Positions 5,996 through 8,455 of a DNA stretch of 9,876 nt are shown here, piece by piece (positions within the stretch are counted from its first letter, which is position 1; each line of letters starts with the position of its first letter). The notes below the pieces were generated by a model. The model saw nothing but the letters and a program-made list of their open reading frames with translations, was not told the DNA's origin and ran no database searches. The position numbers and the translations under genes were made by a program. Source of the stretch: a virus (Duplodnaviria > Heunggongvirae > Uroviricota > Caudoviricetes); the IMG/VR virus record IMGVR_UViG_2724679236_000015. One strand, 5' to 3'.

Positions 5996-8455
5996 ATGAG
6001 TAAAGTCTTTATTTGCGCCGCCATTCCGGACGAACAGGCAACAGCAGAAGGCGCTAAACCTGTGGCCACTGCCATTGAAGCAGGCGACGAACGCCGGGCA
6101 AGAGCCAAATTTAGCTGGTTATTTCTGGAACAATACCCGGAAGCTCAGGACTGTGCTTATAAATTTCTTGTCTGCGAGGATAAACCCGGCATGGCCCGCC
6201 CTGCTCTCGATTCCTGGGATTCCGAATATATGCAGGAAAACCGCTGGAATGAGGAGTCGGCTTCCTTTGTTCCGGTCGACCCTGAACCGGACGCAGAAAT
6301 TGTTAACTTTAATCAGTTATCTGACGACAAGCGGGCTGCTGTCCTTGTCAGGTTCGGTACACATGAAAACATCACCGTGGATATGGTCATCAATGCAAGC
6401 GGGCTTCTCGGCGATGACGAGATGACGACTTTTGATGGACACCTCGCTGAAGCAATTATCCGGACCAGAGAAATTAACGCCATGTATCCAGAGCGTCAGA
6501 TTGAGTACATCAACGATGCCAGACGTGATTTAAAACCAACAGCCAAATGGCCCGACGTTCAGGCGTATTTTCTCGAACGTAAAAAACGCATGGAAAAGGA
6601 GCGCAAAGAAGGTGGCGCATATAATTCCGTCGTCGATCTTGCCCGCGCCAGAGTCAACCGGCAAGGCACTGAAAACTCTGCAGGAAAAACTGGCTCCGTA
6701 ACTGCTGTCATTCGTCGCGAATACAGGCAGACATGGAAAACACTGGATGACGAACTGGCCTACGCTCTCTGGCCTGGTGATGTGGATGCCGGAAACATTG
6801 ACGGCAGCATCCATCGCTGGGCAAAAAATGAAGTTATCGACAACGACCGCGAAGACTGGAAGCGTATCTCGGCATCAATGCGCAAACAGCCTGATGCCCT
6901 TCGCTACGACCGCCAGACTATTTTTGGCCTTGTCCGTGAACGTCCGATCGACATTCACAAAGACCCTGTGGCACTGAACAAATACATTACTGAATACCTG
7001 ACGACAAAAGGCGTGTTTGAAGATGAAGAAACGGATCAGAGTCCTGCTGATGTTCTCCGGTCGTCAGCAACACAAACTGATGCAGTGGAAACAGAAGTAT
7101 CTGGCACCCAAAAAAATGAAAGCGCACTGGAAGCTGAACCATCTGTAGAGCGTGAAGGACCGTTCTACTTCCTCTTTACCGATAAGGACGGCGAAAAATA
7201 CGGTCGCGCAAACAAACTGTCTGGTCTGAATAAGGCGCTGGCTGCCGGGGCTACTGAAATCACCAAAGAAGAATACGTCGCCCGAAAAAATGGCACATAC
7301 ACAGGCTTACCGCAAAATACCAATGCCGCACAAAACTCTGAACAACCAGAGCCGGTAAAAGTTAACACGGTCGAAACAAATAAAAAAATGGAGACAGAAA
7401 ATCTGCCTGATGCCGACAAAGTGCTTACTGCATCACGTGGTGAATTTGTTGAAGGAATTAGCGACCCGAATGATCCGAAGTGGGTTGAGGGGATCCAGAC
7501 TCGCGATTCTGTGTACCAGAATCAGCAAGAAATGGAACAGAACGACCAGAAAGCGGAACAAAACAGCCCGGATGCGCAACAAAACGGGCCAGAAGTGCAA
7601 CAGTCAGAGCCAACAGCACAACAGGAGACTGAAAAAAGCTGCAATACTTGCGGCCGGACTGGCGGTGGAAAATGTCCGGACTGCGGGCCTGTTATGGGTA
7701 ACACAACATATCAGGAAACATTCGATGAAGAAAATCTGGCTGAAAAAGATTCGGAGAAAATGGAAAGCACTGCGCATTCTCGTAAGGAGAGCGCTGGTGA
7801 CGCTCAGCATGGCAATAGCAGTGATGAAACTGGCGAGACGGCAAATCCCCTAATTCCGGTGAACAGTCATCATAAATACATATCCACCAGCAACAGAATG
7901 TGGACTCATATGATGATCGACCTGGAAACCATGGGAAAAAATCCTGATGCTGCAGTTATCTCAATAGGTGCAATATTTTTCGATCCGCAAACCGGAGATA
8001 TTGGGCCAGAATTCAGTAAGACCATCGATCTGGATACTGCTGGCGGTGTCATTGACAGGGACACCATTAAGTGGTGGCTGAAGCAATCGCGCGAAGCGCA
8101 GTCTGCCATTCTGGCTGATGAAATCCCGTTAGATGATGCACTGTTGCAATTACGGGAATTTATCGACGAAAACTCTGGTGAGTTTTTTGTTCAGGTCTGG
8201 GGCAACGGAACCAGTTTCGACAACGTAATTTTACGCCGTTCATACGAACGACAGGGAATCCCCTGCCCGTGGCACTACTGCAATGATCGCGATGTTCGCA
8301 CGATCGTTGAACTGGGAGGAGCCATGGACTTCGATGCCAGAACGGCTATTCCATTCGAAGGCGAGCGCCACAATGCACTTGATGACGCCCGTTACCAGGC
8401 AAAATACGTTTCAGCTATCTGGCAAAAACTGCTCCCAAGTCAGGCTGATTTTTAA
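5996..8455 (+). CDS. Prophage exonuclease: RecE-N-terminal/YdfE-like region fused to a C-terminal DEDDh (DnaQ-like) 3'-5' exonuclease domain
   Basis: 819-aa ORF with GAGG Shine-Dalgarno 10 nt upstream. The C-terminal roughly 190 aa carry DEDDh motifs: IDLETMG (Exo I), [13 protein letters not shown] (Exo II), HNALDDARY (Exo III). The segment [32 protein letters not shown] resembles the RecE N-terminal region as I recall it. A C-x2-C-x9-C-x2-C motif ([15 protein letters not shown]) sits in an acidic, Q-rich linker. Confidence 0.85.
   Translation: [819 protein letters not shown]

Follow-up and report, generated by a model that had tools for sequence, protein, structure and literature searches.

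Gene organization of the exonuclease locus

The window analysed here is a stretch of 9,876 nucleotides (nt) from the IMG/VR virus record IMGVR_UViG_2724679236_000015 (Caudoviricetes), and the subject of this study is the gene at 5996-8455 on its plus strand, whose product of 819 amino acids (aa) joins a long N-terminal scaffold to a predicted C-terminal exonuclease domain. The open reading frame (ORF) is complete and lies exactly at the coordinates given in a first-pass annotation, which a model had made from the DNA letters. A GAGG Shine-Dalgarno sequence is located upstream of the ATG, the product is 100% identical to a public protein named 'exonuclease [Escherichia albertii]', and it matches PHROG 2082 over its whole length. 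The gene is genuine and intact, and it belongs to a lambda-like prophage of Escherichia albertii. The closest E. coli DNA is ~90% identical and belongs to a prophage integrated beside ompW. The surroundings of the gene are those of a Qin/Rac-type early region, of which the following genes define the operon:

5996-8455, plus strand: exonuclease gene, a complete ORF of 819 aa
3755-4162, plus strand: DicA/RacR-like repressor gene at the start of the leftward operon (HTH_3 and Phage_CI_repr in Pfam)
5528-5716, plus strand: dicB, upstream in the same leftward operon (PF05358, E 2e-38)
8520-8768, plus strand: excisionase gene (xis), directly 3' of the exonuclease gene (PF07825)
8746-9876, plus strand: lambda-type integrase gene (int; PF09003 and PF00589)

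Reading rightward in the window, the complete order is the DicA/RacR-like repressor gene, DUF1391, two small ORFs, a DicF-like sequence, dicB, a frameshifted ydfD, the exonuclease gene, xis and int, and the genes that read leftward are Cro-like, YdaT-like, an O-like replication gene and DUF977. The stop codon of the exonuclease gene is followed by xis after 64 bp, with no gene in the gap, and the same order downstream is found in an E. coli relative (L001), mEp460 and Tritos. No promoter-like site was found directly 5' of the exonuclease gene. It probably shares a transcript with dicB, xis and int, as part of the leftward operon under repressor control, and would be made on induction or infection.

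Two of the upstream neighbours deserve a comment of their own. The homologue of ydfD (DUF1482, lysis protein) at 5713-5903 on the plus strand is frameshifted, with 32 aa in one frame and the remainder in another; it measures 191 nt against 192 nt in K-12, reflecting either a pseudogene or a sequencing error. The sequence at ~5263-5373 on the plus strand, 5' of dicB, is 90% identical to K-12 dicF plus its flanks, and DicF was not reported there by an Rfam scan at the gathering threshold.

The C-terminal domain is a predicted DEDDh exonuclease

The catalytic part of the protein occupies its C-terminal end:

7904-8422, plus strand: DEDDh 3'-5' exonuclease domain, aa 637-809, of the Rv2179c-like/DexA clade (PF16473 and alignment)

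The Pfam profile PF16473 (Rv2179c-like 3'-5' exoribonuclease) matched aa 637-809 with an E-value of 6.9e-66 and 221.7 bits, against a cutoff of 27, and the match ran from end to end of the profile (positions 1-177 of 177). The predicted DEDDh catalytic set consists of D642, E644, D742, H792 and D797, each of which was present in 65-68 of the 69 sequences aligned, and these residues correspond in the alignment to D7, E9, D119, H186 and D191 of T4 DexA. DexA, a 3'-5' DNA exonuclease (PDB 8KEL and 8KEN), was the nearest solved protein by sequence (E 4e-8, 30% identity over 165 aa). Purifying selection on the domain was strong, with a ratio of nonsynonymous to synonymous substitution rates (dN/dS) of 0.12. 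The domain call rests on this hidden Markov model (HMM) and sequence evidence, by which the protein is predicted to be a metal-dependent exonuclease of the DexA/Rv2179c clade with 3'-to-5' polarity. The first-pass annotation had likewise called the C-terminal domain a DnaQ-like DEDDh exonuclease, and the profile match together with the five catalytic residues bears this out.

The scaffold combines YdfE-type and RecE-type parts

The scaffold upstream of the nuclease was modelled by AlphaFold2 (AF2) from 45 sequences. The model contained three confident domains (aa 1-204, 245-344 and 385-438), with predicted local distance difference test (pLDDT) values of 77-90, and disordered stretches between them. 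Together with the conserved motifs, the scaffold comprises:

5996-6607, plus strand: domain 1, aa 1-204, a YdfE_N-type alpha/beta domain in place of PF06630 of RecE (AF2 pLDDT 80-90, identity to YdfE)
6728-7027, plus strand: domain 2, aa 245-344, a helical middle domain corresponding to about RecE 278-345 (pLDDT 83-90, BLASTP)
7148-7309, plus strand: domain 3, aa 385-438, a small beta-hairpin plus helix (pLDDT 77-87)
7436-7507, plus strand: conserved RecE-type peptide, aa 481-504, near-invariant in six diverse relatives including K-12 RecE
7640-7684, plus strand: C-x2-C-x7-C-x2-C motif, aa 549-563, a putative zinc ribbon or knuckle (from sequence)
7721-7903, plus strand: acidic, fast-evolving linker, aa 576-636 (from dN/dS and low pLDDT)

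When the full-length AF2 model was compared with the PDB by Foldseek, the best E-value was 0.88, and the three scaffold domains were without a solved relative there. All three are under constraint, with dN/dS of 0.26 in domain 1, ~0.2 in domain 2 and 0.15 in domain 3. In domain 3, the motif GPFY...GR.NK was invariant in alignment A2; this domain is missing from K-12 RecE and falls within a gap of the RecE alignment. The linker showed a dN/dS of ~1.0, an amino acid identity to orthologues of ~0.5 and low pLDDT, and its composition agrees with the earlier description of it as acidic and Q-rich.

The N-terminal part of the scaffold is of the YdfE type. Residues 1-255 are 67% identical to K-12 YdfE, and on the 100% identical public protein (P0001) the precomputed Pfam assignments are YdfE_N (PF27430) and YdfE_C (PF27432). 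The K-12 counterpart, a pseudogene of the Qin prophage, has the same dicF-dicB-ydfD neighbours as the gene in the window, but it is cut off by IS2E and contains nothing past ~aa 255. The E. albertii allele's N-terminal domain is itself just 68% identical to the E. coli copies. PF06630, the Exonuc_VIII domain at the N-terminus of RecE, had no match in the 819-aa protein, and phmmer assigned the N-terminus to the YdfE type.

The following part resembles K-12 RecE, the exonuclease VIII of the Rac prophage. By BLASTP, aa 262-620 aligned with RecE 278-591 (E 3e-51), and the likeness was strongest over aa 475-620, which contain the conserved peptide, the cysteine motif and the acidic linker. The two proteins thus share the middle region, an RGEFV-type peptide motif, the CxxC-x7-CxxC motif, an acidic linker before the nuclease and the operon position upstream of xis-int. 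However, the homology ends at RecE ~591, and the PD-(D/E)XK nuclease match of RecE (PF12684, aa 615-850) has no counterpart in the 819-aa protein, for which a 3'-5' polarity is predicted as opposed to the 5'-3' polarity of RecE and which has xis instead of recT downstream. The NCBIfam equivalog for RecE (NF007259) scored 250 bits, below its cutoff of 1269. In a review, the RecE nuclease domain is given as residues 564-866, and the function of the middle region is listed as unknown (PMC11611040).

The first-pass view of the architecture holds: the gene stands where recE would in an early-left operon of the Rac/Qin type, with a DEDDh domain replacing PD-(D/E)XK, and the homology breaks at RecE ~591, at the start of the RecE nuclease domain. 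Its 'RecE-like N-terminal scaffold' applies to aa 262-620, which do align with RecE, but not to the first 260 aa, which are YdfE-type and lack PF06630. A four-cysteine motif does start at nt 7640 as had been described, but its central spacing is x7 rather than x9 and it ends at 7684 rather than 7690. All four cysteines were invariant in six diverse relatives including RecE, and K-12 RecE carries the same motif (CNACGQTGGDNCPDC, aa 517-531). On this comparison, the C-x2-C-x7-C-x2-C motif is part of the RecE-type linker, inherited from RecE, and not peculiar to the 819-aa protein.

Distribution and modular composition of the family

A search of 1.84 billion cluster representatives yielded 11,729 clusters at E <= 0.001, the majority of which are free-standing proteins of ~180-190 aa with 42-49% identity to aa 637-812. 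Of 5426 complete E. coli genomes, 4031 contain DNA of the exonuclease domain, in as many as 7 copies, which makes the family one of the commonest E. coli prophage genes; that it has escaped genetics is explained by K-12 retaining just the truncated ydfE remnant. The family is already catalogued, under the PGAP names 'exonuclease' and '3'-5' exonuclease', PHROG 2082 and Pfam YdfE_N/YdfE_C, and the arrangement of a nuclease without an annealase is present in the 2025 literature (PMC12315714). On function, our search of the literature on ydfE and on phage Rv2179c-like/PF16473 proteins found nothing. What we add, modestly, is the module map described here, in which the exchange falls cleanly at the boundary of the RecE nuclease, the N-terminus is of two kinds and a Rad52-like fusion is probable.

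The YdfE-type N-terminus is combined with the DEDDh domain in the 819-aa protein and in P0121, with a PD-(D/E)XK nuclease in P0141 and P0154 (confirmed by Pfam for P0141), and elsewhere with C-termini that Pfam does not recognise. The RecE-type N-terminus is also combined with the DEDDh domain, in P0124 and many others, as a second common fusion, so that the nuclease swap has taken place on both scaffold types. Fusions of the latter kind, comprising a PF06630-like N-terminus, the RecE middle region and a DEDDh domain, were observed in P0124, at 3830-6271 of L008 (phage vB_EcoS-689R5) and in ~28 of the loci L023-L102; they follow dicB-ydfD and are without recT.

One of the unrecognised C-termini, found in proteins of ~770-800 aa from Enterobacter, Klebsiella and Kosakonia (PHROG 2489), bears a Rad52-like sequence signature. 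When this PHROG 2489-type C-terminus was aligned with residues 42-172 of human RAD52 by hhalign, 114 columns were paired as expected in register (E 0.0075); it was not recognised by Pfam, by a profile search of the PDB or by Foldseek. In Klebsiella oxytoca, the Rad52-like fusion is encoded at the place in the operon that the exonuclease gene takes here, and a Sipho_Gp157 gene comes next. One and the same scaffold is thus found with a nuclease of the 5'-3' type, with one of the 3'-5' type or, probably, with an annealase. A further C-terminus of ~260 aa is attached to the YdfE scaffold in P0130 (702 aa, Enterobacter; PHROG 26058); it had no Pfam match and is unlike the DEDDh, PD-(D/E)XK and Rad52-like modules.

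Absence of annealase matches at DEDDh-type loci

The first-pass annotation had noted that no annealase gene lies between the exonuclease gene and xis. Across the interval that separates the repressor gene from int, Pfam and PHROGs picked up nothing of the RecT, Red-beta, Erf, Rad52 or Sak type, and no ORF there is long enough to encode such a protein; a local phmmer search seeded with RecT, Bet, Erf and Rad52 gave no match in the same interval. The observation thus stands for the interval before xis and extends to the whole region from the repressor gene to int.

We then surveyed 93 loci whose DNA encodes the conserved RecE-type peptide; of these, 13 were drawn from contigs representing one genome per species and 80 came from IMG/VR. 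Their six-frame ORFs were searched with seeds for RecT, Bet, two Rad52/Erf-type annealases, lambda Exo, Gam, Abc2 and single-stranded DNA-binding protein (SSB), a set that leaves out some annealase families, such as Sak4 and gp2.5. None of the ~83 DEDDh-type loci had a RecT, Bet, Erf, Rad52, Gam, Abc2 or SSB match within +-7 kb, and dicB precedes nearly all of these genes, whereas recT overlaps the stop codon in six of the seven PD-(D/E)XK-type loci. The type of nuclease thus tracks the presence of recT, an association that is new here; the 80 viral loci among the 93 are skewed to close relatives of the query, and the PD-(D/E)XK control group is therefore small (7 loci). Annotated phages show the same pairing: vB_EcoS-689R5 encodes a RecE-type N-terminus with a DEDDh domain and is without recT, and vB_EcoS-666R9 encodes a true RecE with recT present. 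The order dicB-ydfD-exonuclease-xis-int without an annealase also occurs in the E. coli prophage at ompW, in mEp460, in Tritos and in vB_EcoS-689R5, and in the complete PPompW prophage no annealase is annotated anywhere.

Free-standing homologues and Chi sites

The exonuclease domain was found in 635 of 50,697 phage records. Among its free-standing homologues, mEp235 gp30 and epsilon34 gp34 are proteins of 182 aa that are 51-53% identical to aa 630-819, and their genes stand in the order Rad52/Erf-type annealase-SSB-exonuclease-Abc2. Like the gene in the window, they are encoded in a lambdoid early-left operon; unlike it, they have no scaffold and lie between SSB and abc2 with an annealase nearby. 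Occurrence of DnaQ-like nucleases in lambdoid recombination modules has been reported by Zheng et al. 2025 (PMC12315714). In Table 1 of that paper, the 'Tritos' class has a nuclease as its sole component, lacks both an annealase and an anti-RecBCD function, and has many Chi sites. Tritos has a homologue of the exonuclease gene with identical neighbours. The genes of Tritos, mEp460 and PPompW are full-length members of the family (PHROG 2082) with 82-85% nucleotide identity to the gene studied here, and the 819-aa protein is 76% identical to the 50% cluster representative. They share the order dicB-ydfD-exonuclease-xis-int and are without an annealase, SSB or anti-RecBCD gene; the window differs in carrying the E. 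albertii allele and a frameshifted flanking ydfD. In the nuclease-only aspect of a Tritos-type Rec module, the window agrees, since its early-left operon is without an annealase, SSB or anti-RecBCD gene.

Two Chi sites are present at or near the gene, both on the strand opposite to pL transcription:

7884-7891, minus strand: Chi site GCTGGTGG within the exonuclease gene
8476-8483, minus strand: second Chi site, between the exonuclease gene and xis

For the 9.9-kb window, which is a partial prophage, 0.26 sites were expected, and at least two were obtained in 4 of 200 shuffles. Both sites are conserved in position in the E. coli relatives L104 (1604 and 2193) and L001 (11656 and 12245). The corresponding region of the RecE-RecT phage 666R9 (L009) has zero Chi sites. 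A reading of the host element as a 'Chi-rich phage' was downgraded, as the complete relative PPompW has just 3 and 1 Chi sites in 44 kb, with ~1 expected per strand.

Proposed role in DNA-end processing

In the first-pass annotation, a 3'-5' polarity was taken not to fit a classical resection/annealing pair, and a different role, for example anti-defence or nucleic-acid processing, was suggested. That argument is not supported by the family: free-standing homologues sit in annealase-SSB-exonuclease-Abc2 modules, and the YdfE scaffold is fused to PD-(D/E)XK nucleases and, in other prophages, to a Rad52-like domain. This context points to recombination rather than anti-defence. A DNA-end-processing role within phage recombination is accordingly the reading we prefer, with a likelihood that we place a little short of even; the intact catalytic residues and the dN/dS of 0.12-0.26 in the folded parts support it as well.

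The following sequence of events could then be envisaged. On induction, the leftward operon would be transcribed, and the exonuclease would be all that the phage itself contributes to a reduced recombination module, in a prophage of the Qin/mEp460/Tritos type. The scaffold may guide the nuclease either onto DNA ends or towards a partner in the host, as it might do for the 5'-3' nuclease in RecE or for the Rad52-like domain in the sister proteins, and the flexible acidic linker could let the DEDDh domain reach 3' ends. The nuclease would trim 3'-ended strands, either overhangs or flaps, and the trimmed ends or intermediates would be completed by host RecBCD/Chi-RecA or other host functions and not by a phage annealase. 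What our data establish is how the protein is built, its complete catalytic set, the purifying selection, the place in the operon, the missing annealase, the mosaic make-up of the family and the recombination setting of its relatives; the DNA substrate, the target and role of the scaffold and the cooperation with host partners we infer. The two conserved Chi sites fit a dependence on RecBCD, to which we give little weight as PPompW is not Chi-rich. If the recombination role is correct, it bears on recombination and concatemer formation in the many lambda-like phages that lack an annealase of the Red or RecET type, and it may clarify the N-terminal two thirds of RecE, an enzyme widely used in recombineering.

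Several points weigh against this reading. The AF2 model of aa 497-819 was of low confidence and was set aside, which we attribute to alignment A2 being shallow there and mixed with non-homologous C-termini. PF16473 bears the name of an exoribonuclease, so that RNA could be the substrate. The Chi counts of PPompW make the link to RecBCD/Chi weak. The gene can be lost, as frameshifted copies occur: the copy in the E. albertii type strain NBRC 107761 (L010, 7481-8061), 97% identical to the window, contains a 1-bp gap, and the PPompW_EH1846 copy (L104, 1632-4099) is frameshifted and annotated as a pseudogene. In addition, the usual effect of 3'-5' exonucleases in E. coli is to inhibit recombination and not to promote it, and nuclease genes that adjoin int without belonging to a recognisable module may not serve recombination (both PMC12315714).

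A broader version of the end-processing role is possible but doubtful. In it, the YdfE/RecE middle scaffold would be a general recombination delivery platform with swappable effectors (a 5'-3' PD-(D/E)XK exonuclease, a 3'-5' DEDDh exonuclease or a Rad52-like annealase), and the DEDDh form would represent an annealase-independent route to which the phage adds nothing but the trimming of 3' ends and which relies on host RecBCD/Chi-RecA. If this is true, the binding target of the scaffold would explain the first ~590 residues of RecE as well as the boost that full-length RecE gives to linear-linear recombination.

The kinship with DexA raises the question of defence, as the prophage could encode a defence or superinfection-exclusion nuclease that degrades the 5-hydroxymethylcytosine (5hmC) DNA of other phages or the 3' ends of RNA phages. 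The E. coli homologue of DexA, EcD ('HREX'), is reported to cleave the DNA of T4 and to give E. coli protection (Kang et al. 2025, PMC12153337), prophage and plasmid DEDDh exonucleases with auxiliary domains ('TONDO', ISG20-like) are reported to block MS2 and Qbeta (2026 preprint, PMC13344964), and carriage by 74% of complete E. coli genomes, in up to 7 copies, would suit an immunity gene. The resemblance to DexA and EcD extends to the DEDDh clade and, in DexA, to all catalytic residues. However, DexA and EcD are small and free-standing, and by its published description EcD starts with MIDTET, which sets it apart from an 819-aa fusion; the TONDO candidates that were assayed are likewise distinguished by description, being <500 aa and picked as ISG20 relatives. 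The DexA residues W152 and D169, which are reported to recognise 5hmC, align with C762 and A776 here (MAFFT, with the alignment less certain in this part). The gene lies inside a repressed leftward operon, between dicB and xis, and lacks a promoter-like site for itself, its scaffold is common to RecE and the Rad52-like fusion, and the PADLOC match was marginal and to a generic DEDDh (E 4.5e-4). We therefore consider a defence function unlikely; were it true, an immunity gene so far overlooked would be present in most E. coli strains.

Anti-defence or other nucleic-acid processing, as the first-pass annotation had suggested, would mean the destruction of a host immune nucleic acid with a free 3' end, for example retron multicopy single-stranded DNA (msDNA), guide RNAs or linear oligonucleotide signals. 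Lambdoid early-left operons often hold accessory genes, the exoribonuclease name would agree with such substrates, and the gene works without an annealase. We regard this role as improbable, since no similarity to known anti-defence proteins was found, the literature search found no such role, and the homologues and fusion partners indicate recombination.

At about the same low level we place RNA processing, in which a 3'-5' exoribonuclease would act on the leftward transcripts, for example in the maturation or decay of DicF or on the xis-int message. The family name again fits, and the gene is indeed located between the DicF-like sequence and xis-int; this role is inferred purely from that position, the nearest characterised relative, DexA, is a DNA exonuclease, and the free-standing homologues adjoin SSB and annealase genes. 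A decaying, functionless recE remnant, suggested by the truncated ydfE of K-12 and by the frameshifted copies, is very hard to reconcile with the intact ORF, the dN/dS of 0.12-0.26 across the folded parts, the invariant catalytic residues and cysteines and the thousands of full-length copies.

Other features of the window

At 259-648 and 702-845 on the minus strand, two adjoining ORFs match positions 76-174 and 1-24, respectively, of the QueH (epoxyqueuosine reductase) profile, so that 259-845 looks like a disrupted queH gene within the prophage. The segment at 750-1500 forms a low-GC island (36%, against ~47-50% in the surroundings), and within it an ORF of 90 aa at 1117-1389 on the plus strand, for which neither Pfam nor PHROG gave a match, may be an acquired 'moron' gene.

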